From: a virus | DNA length: 51,005 bases | Virus record (IMG/VR): IMGVR_UViG_3300045051_000371 | Coordinates: 1-51,005 of that record | Strand: one strand, 5' to 3' | Part shown: piece after piece, positions 6,307 to 51,005 of the stretch | Layout: the number at the start of each line of letters is the position of its first letter | Numbering within the stretch: position 1 is the first letter of the stretch | The notes under the pieces: model-generated | What the model was told of the DNA's origin: nothing | The model's input: only the letters and a program-made list of their open reading frames with translations | Database searches by the model: none | Made by a program: the position numbers and the translations under genes

Positions 6307-7377
6307 ATGAACTCAACTGAAGATACGAACATTATGGTTGATCTTAGCGGATTGGAAGAGGGTGAAGTGGTGCAAACAGCTGCACCGGTTACCACACCTG
6401 AGGCTCCTAAGGTAGAGGCTAAGGCTGAAGCTCCCAAGGCGGAGACTCCTGAAGCTCCGGCGGCTGAAGAGCCTGCTAATGTAGAAGTTAGCACTCCCGC
6501 TGAACCTGCGGCAGAAGCTACTCCCACAGACGACACAGAACCCCAGTTTACCGAAGCTGAACAGAAGGTTCTCAAGCAGATGTCTCCTTATGCCCGAGAC
6601 TTTGCCATTGCCCGAGTCAAGGAACTACAGAAGGAGCGGGCGGAGCGTATTAAATTGGTGGATGAAGTCAAGACCTTGCGCGAGCAAAAGGAAGCTGCGC
6701 GTAGCAATGTCTATGAATCCGAGAATGCCTATGTGCTAAATCCTGAATATCAGGAAGCAGCCATGGCAGTTAATAACTACAAGAAGGCCGCCCGCCACTA
6801 TGAGAACCAGAAGGCTCTAGCTATTGATGGCGATCCGGTTACATTCATCACGGGAGTTGATGAAGAAGGAGAACTCACATTCTCCGAACCAATGAAACCT
6901 ACCGGCAAGGTGATTGCTACTCTTGACCGGGAAACGCTGAAGATTGCCCGTGGATACGATAAAGCGCAGGGAGTAGTGTCTCGTATCTCAACTGAACACT
7001 CGACCAATCACGGGAAGTTCCGTGAACGAGTTAACGCTATGTCTTCCGCGATGATCCCTCAATGGGATGCCATCACGAAGGCTAATCCCGCGGCCGCAAC
7101 AAGCCACAAGGCCACCCTCGATACACTAACCAAGATGGGCTTTGATCCCCAAGTCTCGCCACTTGTCGATACCGTGGCCCGCCTGTATGCTGTTGCGGAG
7201 CTTCTCGGCACCAAACTGGAAGCTGCCAACAAGTCACTGGCGTCCGCGAAGAGTGTTAACTCTGTCGCCAAGGTAGTGGGTCCCACCAACGGACAGCATG
7301 TTGATGCCGGTGGACGAGTCGCTAAATCCCGGCCGGGATATGTTGAGATCACTCCCGAAGAAGAAGCACGCTATTAA
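6307..7377 (+). CDS. Scaffolding protein
   Basis: Lies between the portal and capsid genes. It has a Pro/Glu/Ala-rich acidic N-terminus and a predicted helical, charged body. Confidence 0.6.
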   Translation: MNSTEDTNIMVDLSGLEEGEVVQTAAPVTTPEAPKVEAKAEAPKAETPEAPAAEEPANVEVSTPAEPAAEATPTDDTEPQFTEAEQKVLKQMSPYARDFAIARVKELQKERAERIKLVDEVKTLREQKEAARSNVYESENAYVLNPEYQEAAMAVNNYKKAARHYENQKALAIDGDPVTFITGVDEEGELTFSEPMKPTGKVIATLDRETLKIARGYDKAQGVVSRISTEHSTNHGKFRERVNAMSSAMIPQWDAITKANPAAATSHKATLDTLTKMGFDPQVSPLVDTVARLYAVAELLGTKLEAANKSLASAKSVNSVAKVVGPTNGQHVDAGGRVAKSRPGYVEITPEEEARY

Positions 7378-7407
7378 ATCTCTCAAAGCAACCCGCGCAC
7401 AATAACG

Positions 7408-7437
7408 AACGGGGCTGGATACTACTCCAGTCCCGTT
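7408..7437 (+). terminator. Hairpin after the scaffold gene
   Basis: aacggggctgga-tactac-tccagtcccgtt forms a 12-bp stem with one G-U pair, 30 nt after the stop. The T tract is weak. Confidence 0.5.
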
Positions 7438-7639
7438 CCCTTTACCATCGCTTGTAGCCCGTTCATAATCCATCGCTTCGGGCATTTGTTCCACGGCTGG
7501 TGGACTGGCCGTAGCGTTCCCGAGACGCGAGTGCGCGCAGCGAGCCGAAGGCGAGCGAGCCACGAGCGGCGAGGAATAGCACGCTATCCCGCTCCGGGCC
7601 TTCATATTCGCCGCGCAGCGGCGAGAACACTAATGAACT

Positions 7640-7655
7640 TGGCACGCATCTTGCT
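7640..7655 (+). promoter_or_regulatory. Sigma-54 type -24/-12 promoter upstream of the major capsid gene
   Basis: tTGGCACGcatcTTGCTt matches the extended consensus TGGCACG-N4-TTGCW exactly. It is intergenic, about 115 nt upstream of the capsid ATG (7768). Confidence 0.75.
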
Positions 7656-7767
7656 TACATAACATTGCCTCGCACACGCTGGAAGGGCATCCAGTTTTGG
7701 TTTGGTAGGTTATTCTAAACCTCCTAGTGAACAATGGTTGTTCATTAAACTAACTAAAACTCTACAC

Positions 7768-9039
7768 ATGCCACAGCCGTTTAACGCAATTGACGTGACG
7801 TATGGACATACGCCACAAGCCGAAGTGCAGTTTTCCAAACTGCCTTATATTCTCGCCAAGAAAGAACTGAAGTCCTGGAAGTCTACCCCGCTTGTTCGTA
7901 AACTTCTCGGTAAAGCCAAGTGGCAGCCGAATGAAGGTGCTACTGTGATGCGCACGGAGTATTCTACTCCTTCGCCCATTCAGCGGCAGATGCCGAAGCC
8001 GAACAAGATGTTCCAATCGGAGCCTAGCTTCGATGTTATTGGAACTCGTCGCTTCTACAATGAAGCCACTCCGGGCTGGAAGGGTTTCCACAGTGCTGAG
8101 TTCTACTGGCAGAACTCATTCGTTGAGAAGTTCCCTGATTCTATCAAGGATGCTTTCGACGACATCATGAATAAGGAGAAGATTTATGATGAAACCTATC
8201 TTCTGTCTGAACTCTACTTCCAAGCTCCGCGTGTTTATATCGCCGGGCAAGGATTTACCTCTGTTAAGCCGTCGTCTGCAATGGACCAGACGGTGAAGAC
8301 TGCTGAATGGGTTCAGGCTCAAGTTGTTGGCAAGGCTCGTGAAGCTCAGATCACTGACTTCATGCAGATTGCCTCTCAAATGCACGACAACGAGGGTATT
8401 CCTTTCTTCCAAGGTAAGGACTACGACGAAGGTTCTCCTGCTCCTGGCGGCACTTTTGCTCTTCTGTGCTCCACTGAGTTCATGCTTAATCTGACGTTTG
8501 ATCAGTATCTCAATCAGAATCGCATGCTCAATACTGATCTCGTTGGTGATGTCTGGAAGAAGACTCCCTTCGGGATGTATACGTGGAAGACTTGGCGTAA
8601 TCCGTTCCGTTTCCAGATTGATGGCACCACTGTTGCGCCGGAGATCACTGAGTCCGCCGCGGATGCGTTCAATCTCAACGAGACTGTTCCTAATCCGCTC
8701 TACACCAGCATGTTGAATGATGGCTCTCCTTACGAGGTTGCCATTATTCTCGGTCCTAACGCTGGTGATGCGCTGGAAGTTGGTCCGCCTCCTTCTGAGT
8801 TCACTAACTCCAGTGTCAGCTCCAAGATCACCGCTATCGACTGGAACGGTAAGATCAAGATGAATGATCTTTTTCTCGTTCCGACGGTTGGTGATGATGG
8901 TGTTGCCACTGTTGCCATCAATCCGATGGGCTTGCGTCGTCGTTATGAGTCTCTGCTCTCTGTTGGCTATGTTCCCCGCCAACGTCGTGCTGTGACTCTT
9001 TACTTCTACAAGCGCAAACTCGGTCCCGCCGTTGTGTAA
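7768..9039 (+). CDS. Major capsid protein
   Basis: 423 aa from the ATG at 7768, directly after the scaffold gene, with strongly biased codon usage. Function is assigned from position and size only. Confidence 0.65.
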   Translation: MPQPFNAIDVTYGHTPQAEVQFSKLPYILAKKELKSWKSTPLVRKLLGKAKWQPNEGATVMRTEYSTPSPIQRQMPKPNKMFQSEPSFDVIGTRRFYNEATPGWKGFHSAEFYWQNSFVEKFPDSIKDAFDDIMNKEKIYDETYLLSELYFQAPRVYIAGQGFTSVKPSSAMDQTVKTAEWVQAQVVGKAREAQITDFMQIASQMHDNEGIPFFQGKDYDEGSPAPGGTFALLCSTEFMLNLTFDQYLNQNRMLNTDLVGDVWKKTPFGMYTWKTWRNPFRFQIDGTTVAPEITESAADAFNLNETVPNPLYTSMLNDGSPYEVAIILGPNAGDALEVGPPPSEFTNSSVSSKITAIDWNGKIKMNDLFLVPTVGDDGVATVAINPMGLRRRYESLLSVGYVPRQRRAVTLYFYKRKLGPAVV

Positions 9040-17908: not shown

Positions 17909-18742
17909 ATGGCTTCTTATCATGAAGTTTCTCCAGCAGAACTTGCTGGCTATACGGTTTCTTCACTTCCTAAGGTTCTTGAGGCTTATACTAAAGCCAT
18001 CCAGCCTTATGATCGTGCGATGCTTGATGCAGCTAGGGTTATTGATCCGCAGAAAGCTCAACACGAATACGATCTCTCTGCTCGTTTCAGTCCGTTGTAT
18101 AACCAGCTGACCAACGATCTACAAGATCAAAACACTGAACTGGGTGCTCGTCGGGAACTTAACACACTCCGCGGAACCGGACGAGATCTTGTCAGTGAGG
18201 CAGTTAAACTTGATGAACTTGCCAATCCAGAGTTCTATGCCACACGTCGTCACTCTAGTGCTCTGTTTAATCAGCTCCTTGATTCTGTTAATCCTAACGG
18301 CCTGACTCCTACTGAGTCTGCTGAGATTGAACGTGGCCTTGCGCGCACTGGAGAACTTCCCGGATCACAGTCTTGGAAACATGCCCAGACTTTTGGCAAT
18401 GCGTTGAACGCTAAGAAGGATCGTCTTGCTTCACTGCTTTCCATGGCTCCTTCCATGCTAAGTTCCAAGACTCAAATTGATCCTTTTCAAGTTGGCACGG
18501 GACGTGCTGGTGTCAGTGCTGCGCCAGTGACCAATTTTAACCCTAGTGGCTATAACAATTCTTCTGCTATTGCAGGGATTGGTAATCAACTTGCAGGACA
18601 GATTGGTTCACAGGTTCAGGCTAATCAAGCTAATGCGCTGGCCCAACAGAACTCTAATCGCCAAAACGCCCTTGGTTGGGCTGGCATTGGTGTTAGCGGT
18701 TTGAATGTTCTCAACAAGACCTTCCCCGGTTACTCCGGCTAA
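17909..18742 (+). CDS. Internal virion protein candidate
   Basis: Position, plus a Gln/Asn/Gly-rich C-terminus. Confidence 0.4.
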   Translation: MASYHEVSPAELAGYTVSSLPKVLEAYTKAIQPYDRAMLDAARVIDPQKAQHEYDLSARFSPLYNQLTNDLQDQNTELGARRELNTLRGTGRDLVSEAVKLDELANPEFYATRRHSSALFNQLLDSVNPNGLTPTESAEIERGLARTGELPGSQSWKHAQTFGNALNAKKDRLASLLSMAPSMLSSKTQIDPFQVGTGRAGVSAAPVTNFNPSGYNNSSAIAGIGNQLAGQIGSQVQANQANALAQQNSNRQNALGWAGIGVSGLNVLNKTFPGYSG

Positions 18743-18747: not shown

Positions 18748-20127
18748 ATGCCTTTACTACAAGACCTTCTTTTTGGTAGTTATCTTGCACGGAAACAGCG
18801 TGAGAATGAAGTTGCCCGTGCGGAAGCAATGCGGCCGGATGAAGAGTTTAAAGCCGGTGTAACACGGGCTACTGATGCTGCGCGAGTAAAGGTTGCAGCT
18901 GAGCAAGCTGATTGGCTGGAAGAGATGCGTCGGCGGAGAGAAAGAAAGAAACCTAAAGAGGATACCGAGGATGAACTTAACGTTGAAACGCAATACGGAC
19001 AAAATCCATTGTATCCCCGAACTTCTCGCGGAGCAACCGCTGCACGCAACGAAGAACTAGCCACAGGTTCCAAGGCTAGGTCTGAATTTAACCTTGGTTA
19101 CATTCCATTCGCTAGGGGTATCGGTGACATGGAAGGCAGTCGTAAGAATCTTGAGACTGTCAATGATCGTAATAGACTTGCTGGTCAGTATGGTGTGTCT
19201 TATCGCCTGGGAGAGACTGCTGCTGATTCAGAACTTGCTAGACACGTCGCTGCTGCTAACGTTGCTCGTGCAACTAGTGCGCTAACTCCCGGACGGACAG
19301 CGTTGGAGCAGGCTCAGAATGCTGAGGCCACTGCAAGTGCAGCTGGTAAAGGCAAGCTTGAACGCGCTAAAATCGCAGCAGATCTGGATGCTGAAAGTCT
19401 TCGCGGTATGGTTAATTACGATCGCGCAGAGCGTGGGCAGGATGCTGTTGATACTGATCGTAGCTTGACTGAGCTTAATAAAGTCCTTGCACAATCCGAT
19501 CTCAGCACTGCCAGACGTTTGTTTGATCCTAATACTGGATCACCAATTGATGCTGCAATTCATCTCGGGGGTGGACGAATTCAGCAAGGAACGGCTATTC
19601 CGGGTGTTAATTATCCTTCGCCTAGCGAAGATATTAAGATGGTGAAGGATCCGTTGACCGGCATTGAGAAGCCAATGGCTGTTCGTGAAGCAGGAAAACC
19701 TGTTCCAACGCTTGGTCGTAGGTTATTGGCTCCTGGAGCTAGTTCCAAATCAAATCTTCCACCTGTCGGTATTGGTAAACTTCCCGACGATGGTAACCAG
19801 CCGCCGCCTCCGGCCGTGCAACCAATTGCTGCCCCTAAATCAGAAGCTGATCAAAAAGCTTCTAAGTTGATTGAAGCCGAGAAGCTTCGTTTGAGTGACA
19901 CTTCAAACTGGACAAAAGCTGACTGGTATAATCTTGCACACAAGTCTTACGGACTTGGTAACATAATCGAACCGCACAAATCTGACGTTATTCGTAAGCT
20001 GCAAAGCGCGATGACTAAAGAAATCGAAACTGGTCGTGACTTTAGAACTGGTGCGCAGCTTAGTCCTGAAGTTATTGCACAAGTTAAACAGCAACTCGAT
20101 GCTTTGATGCGCTTCAATCTCAACTAA
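18748..20127 (+). CDS. Internal virion protein candidate
   Basis: 459 aa with charged, coiled-coil-like segments. Assigned by position. Confidence 0.4.
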   Translation: MPLLQDLLFGSYLARKQRENEVARAEAMRPDEEFKAGVTRATDAARVKVAAEQADWLEEMRRRRERKKPKEDTEDELNVETQYGQNPLYPRTSRGATAARNEELATGSKARSEFNLGYIPFARGIGDMEGSRKNLETVNDRNRLAGQYGVSYRLGETAADSELARHVAAANVARATSALTPGRTALEQAQNAEATASAAGKGKLERAKIAADLDAESLRGMVNYDRAERGQDAVDTDRSLTELNKVLAQSDLSTARRLFDPNTGSPIDAAIHLGGGRIQQGTAIPGVNYPSPSEDIKMVKDPLTGIEKPMAVREAGKPVPTLGRRLLAPGASSKSNLPPVGIGKLPDDGNQPPPPAVQPIAAPKSEADQKASKLIEAEKLRLSDTSNWTKADWYNLAHKSYGLGNIIEPHKSDVIRKLQSAMTKEIETGRDFRTGAQLSPEVIAQVKQQLDALMRFNLN

Positions 20128-20130: not shown

Positions 20131-23100
20131 ATGCCTTTCACCGAAGAACAAAAACGTCGTGCGTTGGTGGATAATGGTTATGATCCTACGTTGTTTGATA
20201 TTGACGAGCAGGGATATACCATTGAGCGCCAGAAAGCTCCACCAGCGACTGCCGCCACAGAGATCCAGCACACTCCGCCGCAAACTAGTGCAAAGGGTGC
20301 CTTTGGTAGATCCTTTGGCGCAGCCATTGCACCTACTCTTGCTGGTCTTGCAACTTCTGCTGCGGCGCTTGGAGCTGCTGAAACAGTCACTGGCGTAGGT
20401 GCTCCAGTTGGTATTCCAACATTAGCTCTCGCGGGACTTCTTGGTGCTGGCGCATCATGGGCTGCATCTAAAGGCCAAGAGAAGTTGATGCCTAAGAGCT
20501 GGAAGGAGCAACTTGCTGCCGATGCGGAGCAACATCCTATCGCGGCGAACCTTGGATCTCTTGCTCCAAACCTTGTTGCATTCCGTCCCAATACTCCGGC
20601 GAATCTTGTTAAGACTGTTCGTGGATTTATTCCTGGGCAGATTGATGATGCTGCAAGACTGGCTGCAAAAGATGCTGCGATCAACACCGGGATTAACCTT
20701 GGCGTTGGTGCAGGTATGCGCACAATGGAGGGTGGCAATGCACTGGATCCGAGCGGAGTAGCTTGGGATGCCGCCGGAGCGCTAGCATTTGGTCGGGCCA
20801 GAAATAATGCACTGACTCGTGGCTTGAAACTTCATCCGGGAATTGATGAAGTTAATCTGGCGGAACTAGTTGATGCAGCGCATCAAGATCAACGTCCTGC
20901 GTTTGAGCCCGTAGCGCCAGAAGCCCCTGCTCCAACGCTGCGCACTTGGGACTTTGATATTCACGGCCGGGAAAAGGAGATCAAAGCTGCCCGGAGTGTA
21001 GTAGATAAGGAACTTGCAGGTCGTCAAGTTGATCCGGCGACTTATGAGTCGATGCTTGTTGATGCGAGTGACAAGCTCCGCGGTGAAGGGAAGCTCAAGG
21101 CCTCGAATCCTGTAGTGTATAAACTCACCAGCGAACTCAAGGTTCGCAAAGAAGCTGAGAAGATTGCACTGGAGGAGTCTAAGCTGGAGCAGGAACGGAT
21201 TGTGCGAGAAGAGAAACTGAAGAAGCAATTCCTGTCTCCGGAAGAAGCTGCTGTGCAGAACAGTGCATTGGAGCAGGAACGGATCATTAACGAGGCGCGT
21301 GCTAGACGCAAGGAAGAGCTTCAGCGTGAAATTGATGCAGAGAATGCACAGCTGGAGCAAGAGGTGGCTACTGCGGCGGAAGATCGTCGCTTGCGCAGGG
21401 AGCAGTTAAAGCGTGAAGTGGATGCTGATAATGCTGCGTTGGCGGAAGAAGAGCGTATTGCGCGGGAAGAGGCGATGCGTCAGCGACAAGTGGCGCAGGA
21501 GGCTAAACTTGAACAAGCCACTAAGGCCGAAGAGCAGCGTCTAAATGCTCAGCCGGACGAGCCTGTTGTTGGCGTGCAGTTTAAGACTGCGCTTGGTTCT
21601 GTCTATACTGCACACGAAGATGGAACCACAACAAGAAACAAGTCTTACCACAAAGAGCATGGTGCTGCGGATGTTGGTGTAAAGCCGCGCAGTAAGGCTA
21701 CTTACTATGTTGCAGAAGACGCTCTTCGCAGGCTTGATCTTGTGCAAGCTCGTGGCAAAAAGTATCGAGACACCGTGGCTGACGTAGGTCAAAATCACGT
21801 TGGTGTTGTGTTGCTTGACGGGCCTGAAAAAGGTAAGTTGTATAAAGATACTTGGGCTCCATTTAAGAAAACGCCTGAGGTTGGACTCTATCCTGTTGAG
21901 GTGTGGGAAGATGGTTCAACTCATTTTGGTAATAAAATTGTTGAAGTTAGGGGTGCGAAAGAGCCTGCCGTTAACCGCATTGCACCTGAAACTCCTACAC
22001 TAGAGCCACAGCGCGGCAAACTCCGCACCACACCTGAGTGGATGGGTCGCACGTCAGAGTCTCGCACAGAGGCTCCGGATGTTGCTGTTGATCAGCGTCG
22101 TCAGGATTCTCGCGAGCAGGCATTGACGAAGGGATTTGTTGACATTTTCAAGAACCACTTCGCTCCGTTGCATGGTGATAAGCTTGTCGCTGGAGAACCT
22201 AAACCTGGCGTTAAAGGCTTTGTCAAAGATGGCGAAGCAACCTATACTCCTGCTGCAACTCAAGATACTCTTCCGCATGAGTTATATGGCCACTCATTCA
22301 TTGACAAAGCTCTCGCTGATCCCCGTGGTAAGAAGATCGTTGGTCAACTGATGACTGAGATCGAAGCTTCACCAGACTATGCTCGTTGGCGAGATGAGGC
22401 TGTTGCTGGCGGGAAGGTTGATCCCAGTGCCAAGGAGTATGCTGCGCAGCTGCTTGGGCAACGTCTTGCTGGTGATCTTGCTGGGCCTAAGTATAAAACT
22501 ACCGAGACTGTTAAGTATCAGCTTAATATCTTGAAGCGCGAACTAAAGAGAATCTTTGGTCGTGCTACGCAGGATGATATTGCTGAGCTTGTGCAGAATG
22601 CTTATGTGATGGGTAGTAGGATGCGGCCGGTGGTGGGTGGAGGTGTGAATGAGTCGCGTGAAGACGCTCCCAATGTTTATGACACTGAAGTCTATCGAAC
22701 TGGAAAACCTGTCAATAAGAAGACTCAACAATACTACGATTACAAGCGTATCGAAAAGCCTGGCTTTGATCGGTTAGTTCATTTTGGAACTAAGGAACAG
22801 GCAGAAGCCGCTGGAGCTTTTCTTCATCCTGGAGAAGAACGTGAACTTTACAAAGGAAAGATACGCAGCGAAGGTTTGATTCCACTTGATGAGGATGTTT
22901 TCAAGGATAATCGCTATATAGATGAACGACTGGAGGCTCAGCTTCTTGATAAAGAAATTGTTACTGAAGACGAGCTAAATGATCTTCGCCGTAGTGCCCT
23001 TAAAAAAGAGGGTCAAGTAGAACAAAGCCTGATTAATCTACTCGAAAAGAAAGGCTATAAAGGATTTACGTATCCTAATGATGCCGAAGGTGAAGGAACA

Positions 23101-25482
23101 AGTTATGCACTATTTCCACGCCGAGGTAGTGAGCTCGTTAAAGGAAAAGATGGCAGCGAATACACACGTGAGATCGGTGGTAGCATCTTCAAACTGTCAG
23201 ACGATTCTCCTTATGTAAAGGGTATTGATCCTGCAAAACGCTACGATGCCACTAATCCTGATCCTCGTTACTCACGCTCCGATGCACCGATTGTAGGCTC
23301 TGGTCTGTCGCGCATTCGCGAACTGGGTCCCGGTGGTGAGTATCTCGGTGACAAATTAGAAGCTAACGCCCAAGATCAGCAACTACTCAACGGACGTTTC
23401 CGTAATCCTGTCTCAGAGGTTCTGCGTGAATTCAGCAATGAAGATGCTGCGAAGATCGACGCACTTGTGTCACAGGAAGGCGGCTTTATTCCACCGAAGT
23501 TTAAGAAGGCTGTGGCGACAATCAAGAAAGCCTTGCAAGATACTCACGATGAACAACGTGCAAGAGGTTTGCCGGTCAAGTATCTTGACGAGAAAGGTAA
23601 TACACGTGTTCGTCCGCCTGAAGATAAGGTTGGCTATAACCCATCTGTCACTGGAACCCATGTCTACGATCAGTTAATCAACACTCCTGAAAGTGCTGAA
23701 GCCGCTGCGTTGCGTAAGGATTTCATTGACTATTTCACCAACGAGTTCTCTGAAGCCAGCGATCCTAAAGCTAAAGCAGAGGAACGCTTGCAGCAAATGT
23801 TCCCGCGAAAAGGTGGTGGTGTTGGGGTAGACTACAACGCTGTTCGTTTGGCGGAGGGACACGGGTTACCTGAGTCTTGGAAAGAAAAGAATATTGCCAA
23901 CAAGTGGTATCGGTATCTTAGCAAGTTCAACGCTGACCTGGCATACTTCAAGAATCTCCAGTCTGATCCAGCGGTGCGGCAGTTACTTAACATCAACGAG
24001 GACGGTAAGACTGTCGGTGTTGCGGAGCGTGCAGAGACACTTCCGGATGGCACTGATATTAAGCACGTGAACTACGAGTCTAATCCACATGTCATCGGTG
24101 CTTTGCATGATGCGGTTGGTGGTAGACAGTTGCTCCCGTCGCAGATGTTGAGCTACGCGAAGCTTGCTAATGCTGTGACGCTTGGGCCAGTGGGTAAAGT
24201 GCGTGACCTTGCAACTGTTGTTCCTATTGCGATGGAACTTGTTGGTCCGTGGGAAGTTATCAAGGCATTGCCAAAAGCAGTAATGTCTACTGCTGAAGGT
24301 ATTGCTAAGGCAAAGGAACGTGGCATTATTAACACACGTTCTGCTACGTGGCACGAGAATCTGGATAACCTTGACACAATGGTTGATCGTGCAGCGGATA
24401 CAATTAACCACTATACCGGAGCACAAAAACTTGAGCAGGTTAATAGGGGTTTCTCATGGGCCCTGGGAAGGACTATCGCCGAGAGCATGCAGAATGATCC
24501 CTCCTTCGTCAAGAAGTTCGGCGGGAAGAAAGATGTTGAGTCACTAGCTGATCGTATTACCGAGAACATTCAAGGAACCTACGACTTCCGCGGAACACCT
24601 ACATGGATTCGGGAAAGCTCATTTGGTCCGCTGTTTGCGTTGAATCGATGGTCTATTGAACGGTTCAACAACTGGAAACGCAATGTGTTCGATGAAGCTC
24701 GGGATGGTAATCTCAAACCACTGCTCGGCAATATGTTCGGGGTGTTGCTGGGGAGTGCATTAATTGATGAACTGAATGAAACTATTCGTGGGAAGAAGCC
24801 TGATCATCTTAGCTGGTCCGAATGGCTGGCGCTAGACGGAGAAGACTCCGCATATAAACTAGCTGCTGCCTTGAGCACTAGTTCAACGACGGGAGTGCTT
24901 GGGGATATTATCTATTCTGCACAACAACTTGCTGCCGGGAAACCTCCGCGTGGAACGGGAATGCCGATGTTGGAGATTGCAAGCAATGTGAGTGAGCGTT
25001 TGGGGCAAATGGTCCAAGCAGAGTCACTAGACTTCGCTCAACTTGCTGTGCAACTGGCAAAGGATAATATTCAGATCGTCCGAGATCTCATTCCTGCCGA
25101 CCCAAAGGCTGATGAACGGCGGGATGTTAGGATCTACAAACGTGTTGTGGAAGATAAACCCACACCGTTCATCAATGCTAATCCGTTCGAGAACGCTACT
25201 GAGAAGGAGCTTCGTGACGCGACGCCGGAGGAGTTTGCTGCATTGCTTCCCAAGGTTGTGCAGGATATTGTAAAGACTTCTCGTAATCCTGCAAAGGATA
25301 TTGAGAGTTTGAAACGCTCACTGTCACGTGGTGATAACAGCTTCGTAGAAGATAACAAGTTCTATCAGATGCTTGTTAAGCTCCGCGGTGAGCGCGAAGC
25401 AAAGGATCGGTTGATTAAGTATCTCGGTGAGAAAGCACTGCGAGAAACTAAGAGTGGTGCATTGGGAGGAGGTGAAAAATAA
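20131..25482 (+). CDS. Giant (1783 aa) virion/ejection protein candidate
   Basis: Gly/Ala-rich hydrophobic N-terminal segments are followed by a long E/R/A coiled coil (about residues 330-480). It is the last gene of the late arm, like the podovirus internal core proteins. Confidence 0.5.
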   Translation: MPFTEEQKRRALVDNGYDPTLFDIDEQGYTIERQKAPPATAATEIQHTPPQTSAKGAFGRSFGAAIAPTLAGLATSAAALGAAETVTGVGAPVGIPTLALAGLLGAGASWAASKGQEKLMPKSWKEQLAADAEQHPIAANLGSLAPNLVAFRPNTPANLVKTVRGFIPGQIDDAARLAAKDAAINTGINLGVGAGMRTMEGGNALDPSGVAWDAAGALAFGRARNNALTRGLKLHPGIDEVNLAELVDAAHQDQRPAFEPVAPEAPAPTLRTWDFDIHGREKEIKAARSVVDKELAGRQVDPATYESMLVDASDKLRGEGKLKASNPVVYKLTSELKVRKEAEKIALEESKLEQERIVREEKLKKQFLSPEEAAVQNSALEQERIINEARARRKEELQREIDAENAQLEQEVATAAEDRRLRREQLKREVDADNAALAEEERIAREEAMRQRQVAQEAKLEQATKAEEQRLNAQPDEPVVGVQFKTALGSVYTAHEDGTTTRNKSYHKEHGAADVGVKPRSKATYYVAEDALRRLDLVQARGKKYRDTVADVGQNHVGVVLLDGPEKGKLYKDTWAPFKKTPEVGLYPVEVWEDGSTHFGNKIVEVRGAKEPAVNRIAPETPTLEPQRGKLRTTPEWMGRTSESRTEAPDVAVDQRRQDSREQALTKGFVDIFKNHFAPLHGDKLVAGEPKPGVKGFVKDGEATYTPAATQDTLPHELYGHSFIDKALADPRGKKIVGQLMTEIEASPDYARWRDEAVAGGKVDPSAKEYAAQLLGQRLAGDLAGPKYKTTETVKYQLNILKRELKRIFGRATQDDIAELVQNAYVMGSRMRPVVGGGVNESREDAPNVYDTEVYRTGKPVNKKTQQYYDYKRIEKPGFDRLVHFGTKEQAEAAGAFLHPGEERELYKGKIRSEGLIPLDEDVFKDNRYIDERLEAQLLDKEIVTEDELNDLRRSALKKEGQVEQSLINLLEKKGYKGFTYPNDAEGEGTSYALFPRRGSELVKGKDGSEYTREIGGSIFKLSDDSPYVKGIDPAKRYDATNPDPRYSRSDAPIVGSGLSRIRELGPGGEYLGDKLEANAQDQQLLNGRFRNPVSEVLREFSNEDAAKIDALVSQEGGFIPPKFKKAVATIKKALQDTHDEQRARGLPVKYLDEKGNTRVRPPEDKVGYNPSVTGTHVYDQLINTPESAEAAALRKDFIDYFTNEFSEASDPKAKAEERLQQMFPRKGGGVGVDYNAVRLAEGHGLPESWKEKNIANKWYRYLSKFNADLAYFKNLQSDPAVRQLLNINEDGKTVGVAERAETLPDGTDIKHVNYESNPHVIGALHDAVGGRQLLPSQMLSYAKLANAVTLGPVGKVRDLATVVPIAMELVGPWEVIKALPKAVMSTAEGIAKAKERGIINTRSATWHENLDNLDTMVDRAADTINHYTGAQKLEQVNRGFSWALGRTIAESMQNDPSFVKKFGGKKDVESLADRITENIQGTYDFRGTPTWIRESSFGPLFALNRWSIERFNNWKRNVFDEARDGNLKPLLGNMFGVLLGSALIDELNETIRGKKPDHLSWSEWLALDGEDSAYKLAAALSTSSTTGVLGDIIYSAQQLAAGKPPRGTGMPMLEIASNVSERLGQMVQAESLDFAQLAVQLAKDNIQIVRDLIPADPKADERRDVRIYKRVVEDKPTPFINANPFENATEKELRDATPEEFAALLPKVVQDIVKTSRNPAKDIESLKRSLSRGDNSFVEDNKFYQMLVKLRGEREAKDRLIKYLGEKALRETKSGALGGGEK

Positions 25483-26988: not shown

Positions 26989-28268
26989 TTCGTCTCAAAC
27001 TCCTTCAAGTAAGTTCCAATCTCATAGACATTCAGGTTGCACTTAGTATCCATTCGATTGGTCAATTTCATTTCTCCCGTTTCAGCACGAAACATTCGTG
27101 CCTTGCGTAACTTAATCATAGATCTCAAAGTCTCTACAAACTCCCGTGCGTTGACAGATTCCAACACTGCTTTGTAAAGTTCAGTGATCTCATAGTCAGC
27201 GTTGTTCAGCAGATCTTCAATCAACTCATGGATCGGGAACAACTCATTGCGTGGCTTTGTGCTGAGTGCTAAATCCATGGTTTTTTCAATAGACTCCAAG
27301 GCTGCGAAAGCTTGTTTGACGTGCGTAATATGGATAGGATGGCTGAGATCTGGACACTGTGAAAGACACACAATACCCGCTAACTTCTGGACGTGAACAC
27401 GTTTACGCTCATAGTAATCAAGCAACTTCGGCGAGCGATTAAGACGCTTCGTGTCGGACTCATGTTCATACCAGTATTTAACATACTCCCGCGCATCATC
27501 AGTGTATCGAAGTGGACCGACGAGACGTGTGAGTTTTGCGATGTGAGCCATTAAACGATGCTTTGCTTCAAGCATCTCTTTGGTCACCGCAGGTCCGTTG
27601 AAATTACGCTTCTTTGGTGTGGCTTCGTAGATGAACCAGGTTCTTGCACCGAGACCTTCGTTGAAGATCTTCTTTTCATAGCAGTCGTAGATGAAAGCTG
27701 GTTGAGCGGCAGAGAGGAGATTCAGGCAGCCGTTGTGGATAGTCTCTTTGCCGCGTTTCTCAGTCATGCCTTGGTAGAGACCGCTATCGTAGATTACTGT
27801 CAGGAACCTGGCAACTTCACGGGGATCCATTCCGGAGGGAAACAGCGCAGAGAACTCCGTCAGTGCAAGCGCGAGGCTGGCATGATGATAAAGACCTCCG
27901 TTGTAATGCTCAATGTTTCCCAGCTTAGACATCAGCTTAACCAACGAGACCTTTGAAGTATTATCAGGTCCTGTCGGAATAGCAAGCTCCTCATTCTCGG
28001 GATACTTACTAAGCGTGTCGTCAGTATTAAGCTCGCCATTCTTCCCAATCCGAAACAAAATATCTCTAACACGATCAATGACTGCGGATTTACCAACGCC
28101 AGGTCCAGCAACGTATGTTGTGTAGGTATTGAGATATAGCCTACTCTCATCGTTTGCTAACCATACTTTTCGCCCGACAGCGGACGATACAAGTGAATAG
28201 AATCCAAAGTCCTTGAATGAATCAGGACTCTCAAGATTCTTGTTGTATTCATCCCAGTCTTGTTTCAT
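26985..28268 (-). CDS. P-loop NTPase, putative replicative helicase or primase-associated ATPase
   Basis: Walker A YVAGPGVGKS, 427 aa, directly upstream of the polymerase genes. Confidence 0.5.
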   Translation of the reverse strand: MKQDWDEYNKNLESPDSFKDFGFYSLVSSAVGRKVWLANDESRLYLNTYTTYVAGPGVGKSAVIDRVRDILFRIGKNGELNTDDTLSKYPENEELAIPTGPDNTSKVSLVKLMSKLGNIEHYNGGLYHHASLALALTEFSALFPSGMDPREVARFLTVIYDSGLYQGMTEKRGKETIHNGCLNLLSAAQPAFIYDCYEKKIFNEGLGARTWFIYEATPKKRNFNGPAVTKEMLEAKHRLMAHIAKLTRLVGPLRYTDDAREYVKYWYEHESDTKRLNRSPKLLDYYERKRVHVQKLAGIVCLSQCPDLSHPIHITHVKQAFAALESIEKTMDLALSTKPRNELFPIHELIEDLLNNADYEITELYKAVLESVNAREFVETLRSMIKLRKARMFRAETGEMKLTNRMDTKCNLNVYEIGTYLKEFETK

Positions 28269-29287
28269 TTTTCTACCAAGCCTCCAGGGTTTTTATCTTT
28301 ATGCCAAGGTCCCCAATTGTCGCCGATCATGCCGCTACTAAGCATTTGAAACTCTTCACCACGTGAAGAAACGAGGTGTGCTTCAATAGCAGGTTTCATA
28401 ACTTCTTCATTCGCTTGCACAGCTTCATCTTCGGGACAGTTTAAAGCAAAGCTGTCGTGACAGTTATTGAAGATTGTCCAATCGAGACGTTCCTTCTGGA
28501 TCCGGGACCACACTATCTCCACCGCTCGATGTGTAATCTCTGCTACTGTGCTTTGTGGATTTGCAGCGTAGATATCCTTGATGCTGTGGCGAACCCGGGG
28601 CGTGAATCGCATCGGATGGCCGAACAGATTATACACAACATCACCATTCTGACGAAATTCACGCAAGACACGTGGTTGCCAGTCGTTGAAAATCTCAGGA
28701 AAGAGTTCATTTTTGTAGGTATTGACATCATGTTGAGCTTCCTCGTAGGAGAGCCAGAGCATTCCGCCGGATCGCTTGAGACAGGTGTCACGATAGATGG
28801 AAGCCTCAGCATCATAGTTAAGACTATGGCACATCGTCTTCCCGTTGAAGTAATAGCGTGCTCCATGTTCCCAGTTGTCACTGTCGGCGATGATTGCAAC
28901 AAGCTCTTTCCAGTAGGAGAGAGATTTCAGTTTCTCGATCGGTGTGCTGGCGGCTTCAAGGAATTGCTCTGCACGCTCTGGGATACGCTTGGCAAATTCA
29001 TGCTTATAACGTCGCAGTGCAACAAAACAATGCGGCTTGATGCCCAACTTGAACAGCTTGCGGAAGTTACCATCCGGAGCTTCCCAAGCAACAATACGTG
29101 CATCAGCACCACTTTGATCTCGCTGAACAATCTTGCGACCCTTGCCAGCAACTACAATGCAACGCTTGCTCTTCTCCCAGTTTTGCATTGAGCGACCAGT
29201 GCCAAAAGGTCCACGCGAGAATAGCTTCCCCTGAGACAGGCGAAACATCTTCTGCGAAGCTATCTTACAGCTGGCTGTTATGAGCAT
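28265..29287 (-). CDS. Family A DNA polymerase, C-terminal fragment (fingers/palm)
   Basis: GTGRSMQNW (compare TGRLSSxxPNLQN), motif A DQSGADARIVA, motif B GKTMCHSLNYD, motif C NCHDSF. Confidence 0.75.
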   Translation of the reverse strand: MLITASCKIASQKMFRLSQGKLFSRGPFGTGRSMQNWEKSKRCIVVAGKGRKIVQRDQSGADARIVAWEAPDGNFRKLFKLGIKPHCFVALRRYKHEFAKRIPERAEQFLEAASTPIEKLKSLSYWKELVAIIADSDNWEHGARYYFNGKTMCHSLNYDAEASIYRDTCLKRSGGMLWLSYEEAQHDVNTYKNELFPEIFNDWQPRVLREFRQNGDVVYNLFGHPMRFTPRVRHSIKDIYAANPQSTVAEITHRAVEIVWSRIQKERLDWTIFNNCHDSFALNCPEDEAVQANEEVMKPAIEAHLVSSRGEEFQMLSSGMIGDNWGPWHKDKNPGGLVEK

Positions 29288-29451
29288 ACAACAGAATATA
29301 CTTTACTTCCAAACACAAACATACACCGTTCGCCAGGCTTCATGATCTTAAGTGCATGTTGCTTCAACTCGTCAACATTGTCACCAAGTAATGTTGCGTA
29401 GCGAATCTTACCTGTCTCAGCAATAGTGCTGATTACGCACTGAGTTTGCAT
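29278..29451 (-). CDS. 57-aa ORF bridging the two polymerase fragments
   Basis: ATG at 29451 and TAA at 29278, found by hand translation (MQTQCVISTIAETGKIRY...). It overlaps the ends of both pol ORFs in a third frame. Confidence 0.35.
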   Translation of the reverse strand: MQTQCVISTIAETGKIRYATLLGDNVDELKQHALKIMKPGERCMFVFGSKVYSVVCS

Positions 29452-31028
29452 TGTTCTTTGCTCCAGGTTCTGTAGTTACGGTAGTAAGGTTTCAACTTGA
29501 GATCACTTGCAGCTTTAGCTTGCTCCCGATAGGCGAGAGTAAGCAGAAGAATTGGATGTGGACCAATCTTCAAGGCAAGTTTGTAGAATTCGTTCTCACC
29601 GAGTTTAGGTGCTCCGGCCGGAGTGTATTTCACTGCCGGATGCTTTTGCACACTGTGGAAATATTTAGAGAGCTGGGCCGGAGACGAGACAAGGCGAGCT
29701 TTGGAACCTTTACCAGCTACCATAGCTTTAATCTCTGGTCCAATCAACAGCTCCGCCACACGTGCATAAAGATTTGCACGATCATCGCAACGTTTTTGCA
29801 TTGTGATACGACGTTCATCGTCAACTTCGCAACCATTCAACGTCATATCCATATATGCACGCGCAGCAGCACAGGCATGTTCAATGGATTTCTTTAGTCC
29901 CTTGCGGGTTTCAGCATAGGCTAGTTGTTTCTGCTTGATTAGACGCATCAAGGAAACATCCTTACCGCAGTAATGCTTCAGTCGATACTCTTGATCGTGA
30001 TTGACAGGATTGTAAACACCGTCATTCTTGTGGTATGGCTCGAAAGTCCACAGTGAACCGCAATGACCAAGGGAACGCTCAAGCAACGGATAGCAACGAT
30101 GCTGGGCGATCATTGTATCGTATAGCTTTTTAGGTGCTGCGGGAAAACCGTAACGCCAGATCATTGCGGGACAGTCGAAGGTATCACCGTTGTGCATGAT
30201 AACACAATCTGCACGACGGATGGCGAGTGTGAGTTCCAGTAAGATACGGAAACCGTCAGGTCGCATGACATCGTTATAATCAACAACACTCGTTACATAC
30301 ACAGGACCCTCTTCACCACACCAAGCGAAACAGCGTATGGATAAATCCGTAGCAGTCTCAATGTCAAAGTAGAAATTCCCCGTATGCGCCCGCAACTTCT
30401 CACAAGGATTGTCAAGCATGATGATCTCGGTTTGATCCAAGGGCATCTTATGCTTGAGAAGGAAGGCAACTTTGCGACTATCGAACTCTAGCCAGGACTT
30501 AAAGTTTTGACGGGAAGTCTTACCGTGGTGAGATTTCTCATCCTCGAAAGTATCTTCAGCATCTTTGTCGTAGGCTTCACTGTCATCATCCGAGACCTCA
30601 TCAGGAGTGTTGTTTTCCTGGAACTTCTTCTCGTGATTCTTGCTGTCGAAACAATCCTGCGGGGTGTAGGATGATACTGCAACGACGTGAGTTAGCTGAA
30701 TCGGCGAGCCACGCTGTTCTCCGAGCGTGGAGAGTGTGCCCATGAAGGTGGTTTGCGCCTTCTGACCGAGACAGAAGATAACACGTGTTCCTTCACGGAG
30801 TGGGCTACGATCATCAGCGATACGAACTTCGCAGGCGTAGAAGTTAATATCAGCCTTGGCAAGACACTCTGTGCTGAACCACTTACCCGCAACGGAAGTG
30901 AGGATCTTGGGTTTATTTTCCTGTGCGGATTGGATAGTGTCGAAGCGGGACGGAGAAGACAAAATGATCGTCAGTCCATTATAGGGAAGACGGGGATTGA
31001 TGCGATATTGTGCCGGCTCAAAGTTCAT
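29433..31028 (-). CDS. Family A DNA polymerase, N-terminal fragment (3'-5' exonuclease plus thumb)
   Basis: ExoI FDIET, ExoII HNGDTFDCP, ExoIII YCGKDV, then a thumb-like LAYREQAKAAS. It ends with TAA. Confidence 0.75.
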   Translation of the reverse strand: MNFEPAQYRINPRLPYNGLTIILSSPSRFDTIQSAQENKPKILTSVAGKWFSTECLAKADINFYACEVRIADDRSPLREGTRVIFCLGQKAQTTFMGTLSTLGEQRGSPIQLTHVVAVSSYTPQDCFDSKNHEKKFQENNTPDEVSDDDSEAYDKDAEDTFEDEKSHHGKTSRQNFKSWLEFDSRKVAFLLKHKMPLDQTEIIMLDNPCEKLRAHTGNFYFDIETATDLSIRCFAWCGEEGPVYVTSVVDYNDVMRPDGFRILLELTLAIRRADCVIMHNGDTFDCPAMIWRYGFPAAPKKLYDTMIAQHRCYPLLERSLGHCGSLWTFEPYHKNDGVYNPVNHDQEYRLKHYCGKDVSLMRLIKQKQLAYAETRKGLKKSIEHACAAARAYMDMTLNGCEVDDERRITMQKRCDDRANLYARVAELLIGPEIKAMVAGKGSKARLVSSPAQLSKYFHSVQKHPAVKYTPAGAPKLGENEFYKLALKIGPHPILLLTLAYREQAKAASDLKLKPYYRNYRTWSKEQCKLSA

Positions 31029-34725: not shown

Positions 34726-34964
34726 ATATCTAGCTTATCAAGCTTATCAAGCATTGCTTTAATTTTACTACGATCAGCTGGCGGACGAGTAGGAGGCGCA
34801 TGGCGTTTTGGTTTAGATTCTCGTGTGGTGCTCTCTGGACTTCCACGGATCAATCTAACTTCTGGCAGGAGATCTTTGAACATATCCATCAAGGTCTCAT
34901 CACTCTCATTCAGCAATGCAATGATCTTCTCGTCATCAAGATTGGTTAATTCATCTATTGTCAT
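34722..34964 (-). CDS. Small hypothetical protein
   Basis: ORF track, ATGA-coupled. Confidence 0.45.
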   Translation of the reverse strand: MTIDELTNLDDEKIIALLNESDETLMDMFKDLLPEVRLIRGSPESTTRESKPKRHAPPTRPPADRSKIKAMLDKLDKLDI

Positions 34965-35602
34965 AGATCAAGATGCAGCGTAACTTCCATACCCTTCAGA
35001 CCTTTAACTGCAATGCCGGGATATTTTAGGATAAAGGTTTGCAACTTTGTATAGTCAGTCAGGCTGTGCAGTTTAATTGTCAATTCACCGATGTCACCTT
35101 CTCGCTTCATCCATTCAACAATCTGTAGTTGCCAGTTGAGTTCTGTCATCATCGGCGAGGCAACGGACAACACACGGTTTTTACGTTGAACCTTAACATC
35201 ACCGCCACGCTTGGCGAAGCTGTAGAGTTCTTCCCACTCAGAGTATTTTCCGGTAGGATCTAGATTCTCGACCAGATACGCAAGACCGTGACGGAAATAC
35301 TGAATAGCTGATGAAGCGGTTAGGCGTGTGGGAAGAATCTCATCTTCAACACCACGATCAATAATGTCTCTAACTTCAACCGCTGCCCGGTGACAGTAGT
35401 ATTCTCCACGAATACAAGTAAACCGGGACTTCTCAGGTTGTCGAATGTAACCGTCAGCTTCGATAATAATCTTGCGAAGACGCTCCTGGAGATCACAGAG
35501 CTGGTTGTCGATCTTCTCTTTTGTCGCTGGATCAGAGACTACCTTTCGACTCTTGATAAGAGCGGCTGCGGTTGATTGGATTTCTTTGTAAGCAGGAATC
35601 AT
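34961..35602 (-). CDS. Hypothetical protein immediately downstream of the sigma-54 activator
   Basis: ORF track, 213 aa, no recognisable motif. Confidence 0.5.
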   Translation of the reverse strand: MIPAYKEIQSTAAALIKSRKVVSDPATKEKIDNQLCDLQERLRKIIIEADGYIRQPEKSRFTCIRGEYYCHRAAVEVRDIIDRGVEDEILPTRLTASSAIQYFRHGLAYLVENLDPTGKYSEWEELYSFAKRGGDVKVQRKNRVLSVASPMMTELNWQLQIVEWMKREGDIGELTIKLHSLTDYTKLQTFILKYPGIAVKGLKGMEVTLHLDL

Positions 35603-35620
35603 GCCAGTGGGGGAAGAGTA

Positions 35621-36556
35621 TTAAAGTGCATCAAGTTTCATGCGTTCACCAAGTGCAATTAGTGAGCGGACGTTGTGGCGAAGATCGCCACGTGTAAGTA
35701 GTGGTGGCAATGGATACTCGAAGCCAGGATAAAGCTCTGACCAAATAAGTTTTGCATCAGCAGGTCGTTCAATCAGATGCTTGATACGGAACTCAAATAT
35801 ACTAATACGAGCATGGAAGTCTTCACGTGTTGGAGTTCCTTGCGACGCACAAACAATGCGACAGTTGGAGATTTCATCAACACCGCCAATGCGTCTAATC
35901 CAACAGCGGCCATCGGAGTCTGGTTGTAGCGCCCGAAGCATCTTGGCTTGGAGATAATCAGGAAGGTCAAACACTTCATCAAGGAACAAAGTTCCACCGA
36001 ATGCTTGTTGGAATACACCATCTTTGCGGTTGTCTGCGCCTGTAAATGCACCTTTCTCGTAACCGAACAATTCAGTTTCCAACAGTGTCGCTGGAATCGC
36101 TGCACAGTTAAGTGCAACAAAAGGTCCTTGTCGCCAAGGTCCATGCAAGGCGCGAGCAAGCAGTTCCTTGCCAACACCCGTAGGTCCACGAAGTAGAACA
36201 GTGTGATCAGTGTAAGCCAGCTTGCGGATGCAACGACAGGTGTCCAGTGTATCAGGGTCTTGTGTGTAAAAAGATTCCAGTCCATTGTAATACTCAGTAT
36301 GCTTAGGTGGCATCCGGCACACTACACGACCTGCATCAGCAACTAAAGGCTCAGCCAAAGATTCTGCTGCCTCGATACGACCTTTAAGATCTTGATACCG
36401 GAACTTAACATTGTTGGGAGTCTTTGCACGTTTGGGATCTACGATTATATGCTTCCATCGCTCCTCAGCCTTTGCATTACGATCCATTGCCCGCATAAAG
36501 ATCTCGACATTCTTAGGATCATGGATGTCGGTAATTTCAATAGTTGAATCACTCAT
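35621..36556 (-). CDS. Sigma-54-dependent transcriptional activator (bEBP AAA+ domain) without an HTH domain
   Basis: LLRGPTGVGKELLARALH, FVALNCAAIP, ETELFGYEKGAFTGA, GGTLFLDEV, QAKMLRALQ and HNVRSLI, collinear with the NtrC central domain. The protein ends right after sensor II. Confidence 0.85.
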   Translation of the reverse strand: MSDSTIEITDIHDPKNVEIFMRAMDRNAKAEERWKHIIVDPKRAKTPNNVKFRYQDLKGRIEAAESLAEPLVADAGRVVCRMPPKHTEYYNGLESFYTQDPDTLDTCRCIRKLAYTDHTVLLRGPTGVGKELLARALHGPWRQGPFVALNCAAIPATLLETELFGYEKGAFTGADNRKDGVFQQAFGGTLFLDEVFDLPDYLQAKMLRALQPDSDGRCWIRRIGGVDEISNCRIVCASQGTPTREDFHARISIFEFRIKHLIERPADAKLIWSELYPGFEYPLPPLLTRGDLRHNVRSLIALGERMKLDAL

Positions 36557-40783: not shown

Positions 40784-41413
40784 TTACGCCGCCTTCGGCT
40801 TACGGCGACGGGACTCAATGTCCGCAACGAGCGAAGTCTTCTGCACCTTGAGAACGCGCAACGCAGTGCGCTCTTCATCGGACAGAACATCCTTCACAGT
40901 ATATTCCATACCGGTGGCAGGATTGATGTCACCATTGAAGACAGGCTGCAACTTGGGCTCAAAGCCAGCGAGTTCCTTCTCGATAGCCTCAAGCGCCTCA
41001 GTCATATCCTTAATAGACGCACCCGCATCATCACGCAGCCACTTCTCCAGGGCCTTGGCAGCGATCTCTTCATCCAATCCTTCCTTCTCAGTAGTAGCAG
41101 CGCGAGTGCATTTGTTACCAGCCATGCGGAAGTCAGCATCCAGCACGCTGAGAACATTAGCCTCACCGCCATAGACCTGAATGTAATCCGCCAGCTTCCA
41201 GCCATTGCGATCAATCTGGACGGTCAACGGATAAACTTCAACTTCCTTGCGAACGATGTTGCCGTGAGCATCAAGCTGCGGCTGACCACTGGCATCGAGG
41301 ACATTGACAGGCTCCTTCACAGCACGCAGTGCCTTGGCGAGAACGATCTTGATTTCACGGGGACCAGACTGAGTGTCAAGGTTGAACGAACGAACGAGCT
41401 TATTGGTTTCCAT
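40784..41413 (-). CDS. Hypothetical protein with a basic C-terminal tail
   Basis: 209 aa, preceded by a 60-nt A-rich leader, ending RRRKPKAA. Confidence 0.55.
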   Translation of the reverse strand: METNKLVRSFNLDTQSGPREIKIVLAKALRAVKEPVNVLDASGQPQLDAHGNIVRKEVEVYPLTVQIDRNGWKLADYIQVYGGEANVLSVLDADFRMAGNKCTRAATTEKEGLDEEIAAKALEKWLRDDAGASIKDMTEALEAIEKELAGFEPKLQPVFNGDINPATGMEYTVKDVLSDEERTALRVLKVQKTSLVADIESRRRKPKAA

Positions 41414-41836: not shown

Positions 41837-42018
41837 GATTCTTCTGCTAATTCGATTGCCACAAGTCGAAGCTTGTTGGGCCTGAGTTTTAGATGTTCGC
41901 CGATAAGTTTCAAACCATCATACTTTGTCTTGGCGTAGAGTTCGTAGACTTTGCCGGAGTAGAAGGCCATGTATGGATAGTCGCCTTCGGATTTTGTGTT
42001 GATCTTGATGTGGTTCAT
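41833..42018 (-). CDS. Small hypothetical protein
   Basis: ORF track, ATGA-coupled. Confidence 0.45.
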   Translation of the reverse strand: MNHIKINTKSEGDYPYMAFYSGKVYELYAKTKYDGLKLIGEHLKLRPNKLRLVAIELAEES

Positions 42019-50878: not shown

Positions 50879-51005
50879 CACGTGGTCGGAGATTTGCCTG
50901 TCTACTATTCACGTGGTCTGGGGAGTCGTAGATCAAGATATTCGCTGATTCACGTGGTCTGGGGAATGATCTTAACAACTAGTTCATCGCTTGTCTACGA
51001 TTCAC
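50879..51005. repeat. Terminal direct repeat, copy 2 (identical to 1..127)
   Basis: Exact 127-nt identity with the start of the window. Confidence 0.9.

Follow-up and report, generated by a model that had tools for sequence, protein, structure and literature searches.

What turns on the major capsid gene of the virus whose DNA is IMG/VR record IMGVR_UViG_3300045051_000371? The window (the whole stretch analyzed, positions 1 to 51,005 of that record, 51,005 nucleotides (nt) long) carries in front of this gene the plus-strand sequence TTGGCACGCATCTTGCTT at 7639-7656, which has the form of a -24/-12 promoter of the sigma-54 type, and elsewhere it encodes a short protein with the ATPase core of a sigma-54 activator. 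The analysis below makes it very likely that 7639-7656 is a sigma-54-type promoter that serves the capsid gene, and it makes probable the fuller model, drawn from sequence comparisons, in which host sigma-54 polymerase at this promoter would be opened by the phage's own activator acting from solution.

The element itself was described in a sequence-only reading of the window as matching the extended sigma-54 consensus at every specified position, and this was confirmed by direct read-out: TGGCACGCATCTTGCT at 7640-7655 fits TGGCACG-N4-TTGCW at all specified bases, with GG at 7641-7642, GC at 7653-7654 and exactly 10 nt between them (GG-N10-GC). It lies in the 390-nt gap (7378-7767) between the stop of the open reading frame (ORF) at 6307-7377 and the capsid ATG at 7768, has the same orientation (+) as the capsid gene and ends 113 nt before the ATG, so that the earlier description of a 390-bp gap, the right orientation and ~115 nt to the start codon also holds. 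The sole sigma-70-like match in the gap is weak (9/12) and is located at 7441-7469, 170 nt upstream of the sigma-54 site. Standard sigma-54 promoter geometry places the predicted transcription start ~11-13 nt past the -12 GC, near 7665-7667, and the predicted 5' leader of the capsid mRNA at 7665-7767 (+).

Is a match of this kind expected by chance in DNA of this length? The sequence-only reading had put the expectation for the relaxed pattern TGGCAY-N5-TTGC at ~0.2 with equal base frequencies, which is arithmetically right; dinucleotide shuffling gives 0.33 per window, and none of 100 shuffles reached the five exact matches that the window contains (2426+, 7640+, 8622+, 41550- and 49347-). 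Its manual count of four was one too low, one of the five (8622) is a by-product of coding (below), and it overlooked two relaxed matches, 18493+ and 35606-. The genome scan with a sigma-54 weight matrix that it had proposed was done with a matrix built solely from the capsid-upstream sites of relatives, and site 7640 has the highest score in the window at 27.8 bits. Four sites score above 16 bits where 0.21 are expected, and the top six each lie on the coding strand of their own module; the further sites (2426+, 18493+, 35606-, 41564- and 49361-) are all directed along their gene modules.

The evidence that carries most weight is conservation. Nearly all relatives examined, down to 23% capsid identity, have a -24/-12 element 98-271 nt before the capsid gene. 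TGGCAY-N7-GC is present in front of the capsid gene in 14 of the 14 contigs fetched through capsid homologues (97% to 26% identity), at 113-121 nt from the gene in the closer relatives and at 114-271 nt from it in the distant ones. When five lineages with 48-97% capsid identity are aligned, TTGGCACGC and TGCT do not change at all, whereas the spacer and almost all flanking bases vary, and the information profile of the matrix reaches 2.0 bits at TGGCA and TGC but stays at 0.3-0.7 bits across the spacer. In all metagenome loci whose upstream sequence was long enough (51/51), the top sigma-54-like site falls 112-185 nt before the estimated gene start, and ~20 of those sites score within the consensus range. 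Among 80 IMG/VR loci the element stands on the gene strand 98-230 nt upstream in 73, against a background of 0.03 per 350 nt. The spacing serves as a control here: with the motif set at N7 (equivalent to GG-N10-GC) it occurs in 63 of the 69 distinct IMG/VR upstream regions, and with N4-N6 or N8-N10 in only 0-1 of the 69. This exact spacing is kept though the flanking DNA and the capsid protein have diverged to 23-30% identity, and leader lengths of ~90-260 nt are kept across the capsid family. Judged by these alignments, the capsid-upstream motif is a phylogenetic footprint. In the distant relative UViG 3300025912_000027 (48.1 kb, capsid 28% identical), eight matrix sites were found in the 38.8 kb examined and all eight are on the gene strand, so a layout with several promoters, beyond the capsid site, is a trait of the family.

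The second line of evidence is a gene for a putative sigma-54 activator, or bacterial enhancer-binding protein (bEBP), of 311 amino acids at 35621-36556 (-), which matches Pfam PF00158 (Sigma54_activat) with E=2.8e-42. It has a Walker A motif (GPTGVGKE, residues 124-131), a GAFTGA loop (169-174) and a Walker B motif (LFLDEV, with D193-E194); the Walker motifs and GAFTGA are invariant in the phage activator subfamily, some members having GSFTGA. Residues 109-301 align to the AAA+ domain of FleQ, NtrC and PspF, and the protein stops inside the lid. The Pfam scan found no Fis-type helix-turn-helix (HTH_8, PF02954), and residues 1-109 gave no Pfam match even at E<=10. Full-length relatives are 300-311 amino acids long, and five of them (P0013-P0017) lack the HTH family PF02954 and the lid family PF25601, both of which are present in the cellular matches; cellular NtrC-type proteins match the phage protein in the core only, at ~51% identity. 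The automatic name given to these relatives by the Joint Genome Institute, "PAS, ATPase and Fis domain", is not borne out, in that no PAS or Fis domain was matched. Short activators of the same build occur in the syntenic replication modules of the relatives L010 and L011 (L numbers denote related viral contigs throughout), and an IMG/VR scan with the alignment of short activators returned 255 relatives. At least 27 viral genomes have both the short activator and the capsid family when the best 80 activators are compared with the 80 capsid loci, and at least 23 of the 43 capsid contigs of 45 kb or more carry the short activator. The matching PHROG family, 7998, is labeled "unknown function", and full-text searches of the open-access literature found no report of a phage-encoded sigma-54 activator.

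Does the gene downstream of the promoter in fact encode the major capsid protein, as the sequence-only reading assumed? Sequence searches of its 423 amino acid product (7768-9039, +) against Pfam, PHROGs and the PDB gave no match, and the assignment comes from structure modeling and homologues. An AlphaFold model built from a 65-sequence alignment (mean predicted local distance difference test, pLDDT, 83.3; predicted template modeling score, pTM, 0.82), which replaced an earlier 11-sequence model with a pLDDT of 43, has as its best Foldseek match the phage N4 capsid protein (9e99_B, E=2.2e-11). The best matches are the capsids of N4, Moo19, DEV and B2, with E values of ~1e-11 to 1e-9 and probability 1.00, and 300 matches have E<=1e-3, with phage capsid proteins making up nearly all of those at the top of the ranking. 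By this model the gene encodes an HK97-fold major capsid protein nearest to the capsids of N4-like podoviruses, which bears out the earlier identification. An exhaustive profile search places the protein in a family of 162 clusters, and the ATG at 7768 is supported by capsid homologues of 416-426 amino acids that align from residue 1.

The gene upstream (6307-7377, +; 356 amino acids) is a putative scaffolding protein gene by its position; its product has no family match in Pfam or PHROGs, and the order of a 615 amino acid portal-sized ORF, the 356 amino acid ORF and the capsid gene is kept in relatives. Thirty nt past its stop codon lies a GC-rich 13-bp hairpin (7407-7438, +), a presumed terminator with a weak T-tract (CCTTTACC). 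Relatives L005, L006 and L013 also have a hairpin at this position, in their case with a T-tract. The earlier claim of a terminator hairpin after a scaffold gene thus stands as regards the hairpin, and its "scaffold" label comes from gene order only. This hairpin presumably splits the capsid unit from the terminase-portal-scaffold unit.

How might these parts work together? Host RNA polymerase with sigma-54 would bind the -24 GG and -12 GC and stay as a closed complex. The 311 amino acid AAA+ activator, made earlier from the replication-side module, would open this complex by ATP hydrolysis via its GAFTGA loop, and because no DNA-binding domain is recognizable in it, it would most likely act from solution with no enhancer. 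Sigma-54 promoters are silent without an activator, so the arrangement would provide a clean temporal switch, in which the appearance of the activator would turn on all of the phage's sigma-54 promoters together (2426, 7640, 41564, and probably 49361 and 18493). Transcription from 7639-7656 would start near 7665-7667, give a ~100-nt leader with a conserved hairpin, and proceed through the capsid gene and probably also the genes after it. The comparisons show the motif with its statistics and exact-spacing conservation, the capsid fold, the motifs and domain make-up of the activator, and the joint occurrence of activator and promoter in the family; we infer that sigma-54 binds the site, that the phage activator is required and needs no enhancer, and where and when transcription starts. 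The exact-spacing conservation in relatives and the GAFTGA activator in the same genome support the sigma-54 promoter reading that had been proposed from the window's letters.

Several observations weigh against this model. The exact pattern is missing in 6 of the 69 distinct IMG/VR upstream regions; one of these (L180) has the motif with GCG at the -12 end, which leaves one clade, with 5 loci here, fully without it. The clade L141, L161, L162, L166, L167 and L171 has no such motif. A freshwater clade (L036, L039-L064 and L183-L196) has TGGCATATCGTTAGCA ~155 nt before the capsid gene, in which GG-N10-GC is kept and the -12 element is non-consensus, TAGCA instead of TTGCW. The candidates at 41564, 18493, 49361 and 35606 are inside or overlap coding sequence. 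A common-motif search showed that the window's sites share no upstream enhancer motif, only chance-level 9-mers, which fits an activator without a DNA-binding domain but removes one usual hallmark of sigma-54 control. The ~100 amino acid N-terminal region of the activator could itself bind DNA or make activity conditional. Early promoters, finally, were not identified in the window by searches for sigma-70-type matches (not enriched, none above 9/12) or for the Bacteroidota-type TAnnTTTG (not enriched, 14 versus ~25 expected).

Could the promoter be a real sigma-54 promoter that is fired by host activators, as is presumed for Pseudomonas phage YuA (below), the phage AAA+ protein having some other job, for instance to rewire the sigma-54 regulons of the host or to titrate sigma-54? 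We consider this unlikely, and it is the strongest of the alternatives. Against it, activator and capsid promoter are found together throughout a family diverged to ~25% capsid identity, and a sigma-54 site shortly past the activator gene recurs in many lineages (below); in its favor, no enhancer sequence ties the phage activator to the window's sites. Firing by host activators would also couple the late genes to host nitrogen or flagellar signals despite the constitutive-looking core of the phage activator; on the other hand, an activator with no DNA-binding domain would fire host sigma-54 promoters too, and YuA has sigma-54 promoters and no tblastn match to the phage activator.

It is much less likely that TGGCAY-N7-GC is recognized by some other factor (a phage sigma factor, RNA polymerase or DNA-binding regulator) and is merely sigma-54-like. 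The conserved positions are the sigma-54 contact bases at sigma-54 spacing with a free spacer, the genome encodes a protein with the GAFTGA loop, which is the sigma-54 contact motif of its family, and no RNA polymerase or sigma domain was found in the window's ORFs scanned; these points outweigh the off-consensus TAGCA of the freshwater clade, the many ORFs (including one of 1783 amino acids) that have no recognizable family, and a capsid fold nearest to that of N4-like phages, which have their own polymerases. Equally improbable is sigma-54 binding that does not transcribe the capsid gene (a poised or roadblock complex, or chance) with the gene read through from upstream, since conservation and the spacing control exclude chance and the motif keeps a fixed, co-oriented intergenic place after the hairpin and ~100-230 nt before the capsid ATG. 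Points in favor of such binding are the weak T-tract of that hairpin, the description of conserved sites in E. coli where sigma-54 binds within genes or non-productively (PMC4591121), and site 35606, which overlaps a start codon and may be of the non-productive kind.

How does control by host sigma-54 and a phage activator compare with known systems? Known phage takeovers of host transcription use the phage's own polymerases, sigma factors, anti-sigma factors or antiterminators, and to our knowledge phage use of host sigma-54 is documented for YuA-type phages only, there without a phage activator. The 2008 paper on YuA is said to report three sigma-54 promoters in the region for particle formation and lysis, with dependence on host rpoN confirmed with an rpoN mutant. 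That YuA (Yuavirus) depends on sigma-54 promoters is stated in PMC10914365, which cites Ceyssens et al. 2008 for it, so phage use of sigma-54 is not in itself new. Both phages are tailed and have no known RNA polymerase of their own, and YuA uses, as the window's phage would, the host sigma-54 holoenzyme for part of its program. In YuA, too, a terminator precedes the capsid gene, whose long leader is a candidate non-coding RNA. They differ in that YuA has no tblastn match to the window's activator and no TGGC-N9-GC match in the gap that precedes its major head gene, whereas the promoter described here is family-wide, capsid-proximal and paired with a phage-encoded activator. No Yuavirus kinship was detected by megablast or tblastn of the capsid region, the capsid or the portal.

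Among cellular proteins, FlgR of Helicobacter and Campylobacter has no DNA-binding domain, the AAA+ domain of DctD has been used as a promiscuous activator, and PspF binds an enhancer through an HTH at its C-terminus and is under the control of PspA. The phage activator is like PspF in being small (~300 amino acids) with no receiver domain, and its AAA+ core aligns to that of PspF (E=2e-28); PspF differs in being a host gene despite its phage-shock name. With FlgR, DctD and Chlamydia CtcC, which is functional without a DNA-binding domain (PMC7482065), it shares a GAFTGA-bearing AAA+ core and the lack of a C-terminal HTH. CtcC and FlgR differ from it in being cellular proteins with a phospho-receiver domain, where the phage activator has a ~100 amino acid N-terminus with no recognized domain and ends in the lid. 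Activators that lack a DNA-binding domain activate sigma-54 promoters with no enhancer (PMC3844500). T4 late transcription (gp55/gp33 plus the gp45 clamp; PMC2988020) likewise has a site-free phage activator and late promoters that are not of the sigma-70 type. T4 supplies its own sigma-like protein and a replication clamp, whereas the window's phage would supply an ATPase only and use host sigma-54. What appears to be new here, then, is a virus-supplied, probably enhancer-independent activator together with a family-wide promoter layout, the host factor being the same as in YuA.

If correct, this would be the first virus-encoded bEBP system and a third route to late transcription, in which a phage ATPase alone acts as a compact all-or-none late switch. 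It would give a role to the "sigma-54 interaction domain" proteins that are scattered in viral metagenomes, PHROG 7998 for example. Somewhat more confidently than not, but less firmly than for the window itself, we extend the reading to an uncultured tailed-phage family with genomes of ~47-56 kb and the N4-like capsid fold (at least 89 IMG/VR genomes from soil, fresh water and other habitats) that would run its middle and late genes through host sigma-54 and its own enhancer-independent activator. For annotation, TGGCAY-N7-GC ~100-230 nt before the capsid gene provides a rule for the late promoters of this abundant family; host prediction would be narrowed to bacteria that carry rpoN; and the activator and promoter could make a small orthogonal pair for synthetic biology. 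Virus-encoded activators may not be confined to one family. Relative L101 (IMGVR_UViG_3300009873_000274) has a different, PspF-like activator of 342 amino acids with a C-terminal HTH, and human-faecal "Bacteriophage sp." contigs (GenBank MT836026, MT835853 and others) encode AAA+ sigma-54 domains.

Among the other sigma-54-type sites of the window, the candidate TGGCATGAGAATTGCT at 2426-2441 (+; 15.8 bits) ends a 460-nt AT-rich gap. The packaging and head module opens ~84 nt after it with its first gene (ATG at 2526), and the distant relative L012 has its equivalent before the first structural gene (position 3709). The candidate TGGCACGGGACTTGCT at 41549-41564 (-; 17.0 bits) is 135 nt before a gene for a 209 amino acid protein (40784-41413, -) and overlies codons for VGTGLAG in ORF 41474-41836. 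A homologous gene for a protein of ~205 amino acids is preceded by equivalent sites in L010 (4962) and in L011 (1956, where it is intergenic). A terminator-like hairpin (40776-40753) directly follows the 209 amino acid gene at its 3' side, so the unit looks monocistronic, and positive autoregulation of the activator through an operon starting at 41564 is accordingly not supported. The retention of the promoter, gene and terminator unit in L010 and L011 suggests that its protein is needed in bulk.

Two further sites are plausible promoters. The candidate TGGCATGAGCCTTGCT at 49346-49361 (-; 21.6 bits) is contained in the long ORF 48900-49499 (-), and 92 nt past it comes an in-frame ATG at 49253 that would give a 117 amino acid product, and the weaker candidate TGGCACGGGACGTGCT at 18493-18508 (+; 13.8 bits) lies inside the tail-module ORF 17909-18742, 239 nt before gene 18748-20127; a search for relatives of these two regions found none for either. 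Separately, 18490-18511 (+) and 41567-41546 (-) are identical at 21 of 22 nt (AGTTGGCACGGGAC[G/T]TGCTGGT), and both encode V-G-T-G-[R/L]-A-G in the same frame of ORFs that otherwise look unrelated. The exact match at 8622-8637 (+) was rejected as a promoter: it codes for the conserved residues DGTxVAPEI, scores below 10 bits with the family matrix, and is not kept as a motif, relatives encoding the same residues with other codons.

The site TGGCATGATTCCTGCT at 35591-35606 (-; 21.5 bits) lies 15 nt past the stop codon of the activator gene, and its -24 element, TGGCATG, includes the ATG of the next gene (34961-35602). The predicted start of transcription would fall inside that gene, and a transcript from it would therefore lack the gene's start codon. 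A sigma-54 site 4-540 nt past the activator stop recurs in L010, L090, L094-L098, L100, L110, L113 and L114 (for example L010:10908, L090:1579, L095:10702, L098:2597 and L114:11039). In the window, L090 and L010 the TGGCATG contains the start codon of the next gene, whose product is ~212 amino acids long, and this N-terminus is conserved at the protein level. For the post-activator sites of L095 and L098, only ~6 nt separate the predicted start from the ATG that follows.

The predicted capsid leader contains a hairpin, GCTGGA-AGGGCA-TCCAGT at 7678-7695 (+), whose stem shows compensatory changes. It is found 23-104 nt past the promoter in the capsid leaders of L004-L009, L015-L035 and L126-L179, where the loop A|AGGGCA|U (AAGGGCAU) is nearly invariant and the 4-7 bp stem varies freely, with 41 distinct versions. 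Among five sequences, three of the six pairs are compensatory; in the larger set, where sequences were selected for a stem of at least 4 bp, the fifth pair is the only unbiased one, and it is formed in 31 of 39 sequences. Many capsid leaders start with a motif like TTGCTTCTAC (TTGCCTCGCAC in the window), which precedes the hairpin, and in some clades GCTTCTA flanks the hairpin on both sides. The hairpin has no Rfam match. Pairing of the loop GGCAU with the start region AUGCC, which was seen in a single-sequence fold, was ruled out because L006 starts with AUGGC. The hairpin could be an antitermination, mRNA stability or translational operator element. The arrangement resembles the lambda nut sites (boxA plus boxB), which likewise have a short stem and a conserved purine-rich loop early in a long transcript; the leader hairpin has no sequence similarity to boxB, and no N-like protein or antitermination function was identified. 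The conserved hairpin is a candidate new RNA motif, which may add control at a second level, after initiation.

The stretch from the upstream hairpin to the promoter includes a ~120-nt GC-rich non-coding block (7484-7600, +). In the window, L001, L017 and L004 (73% capsid identity) this block hardly varies, whereas the DNA on either side of it diverges. Its fold has several hairpins, in which two pairs covary (TG/CA, CG/CG and CA/TG), and L005 has an analogous repeat (GGCGGAC...CGAAGG...). Spanning -40 to -160, it is found at the capsid promoter only among the window's sites; it may act as a structured RNA or as an upstream element specific to this promoter.

As to the genome in which these elements lie, an exact 127-nt direct repeat (1-127 and 50879-51005) shows that the window is a circular assembly of a genome of ~50,878 bp. 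A plus-strand module at ~2.5-25.5 kb contains the packaging, head, lysis and tail genes, with a holin and a tail fiber recognizable, and a minus-strand module at ~27-50 kb contains replication and small genes, among them a DUF3987 primase-like protein, a split family-A DNA polymerase, AAA_24, a helicase-like protein and a dUTPase. Megablast of the capsid region and tblastn of the capsid and portal proteins gave no match in 50,697 phage records, no related prophage turned up among 185,579 species genomes scanned, and the window represents an uncultured phage lineage. Its GC content is 46.5%, no tRNA genes were found in it, and a Shine-Dalgarno-like sequence precedes only ~2-3 of 37 gene starts, the upstream regions being A/C-rich.

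Three individual genes deserve mention. Searches of Pfam, PHROGs and PDB sequences gave no match for the 1783 amino acid product of ORF 20131-25482 (+); in view of the N4-like capsid fold, an enzyme delivered with the virion, for instance an early-gene polymerase, is conceivable. Two adjacent ORFs, 29433-31028 (-) and 28265-29287 (-), of 531 and 340 amino acids, together make up the split family-A DNA polymerase, and L011 has the same split. The product of ORF 42015-42416 (-) has a Tad2-like (anti-Thoeris) domain (PF11195, E=2.5e-6), which scores above the curated cut-off.

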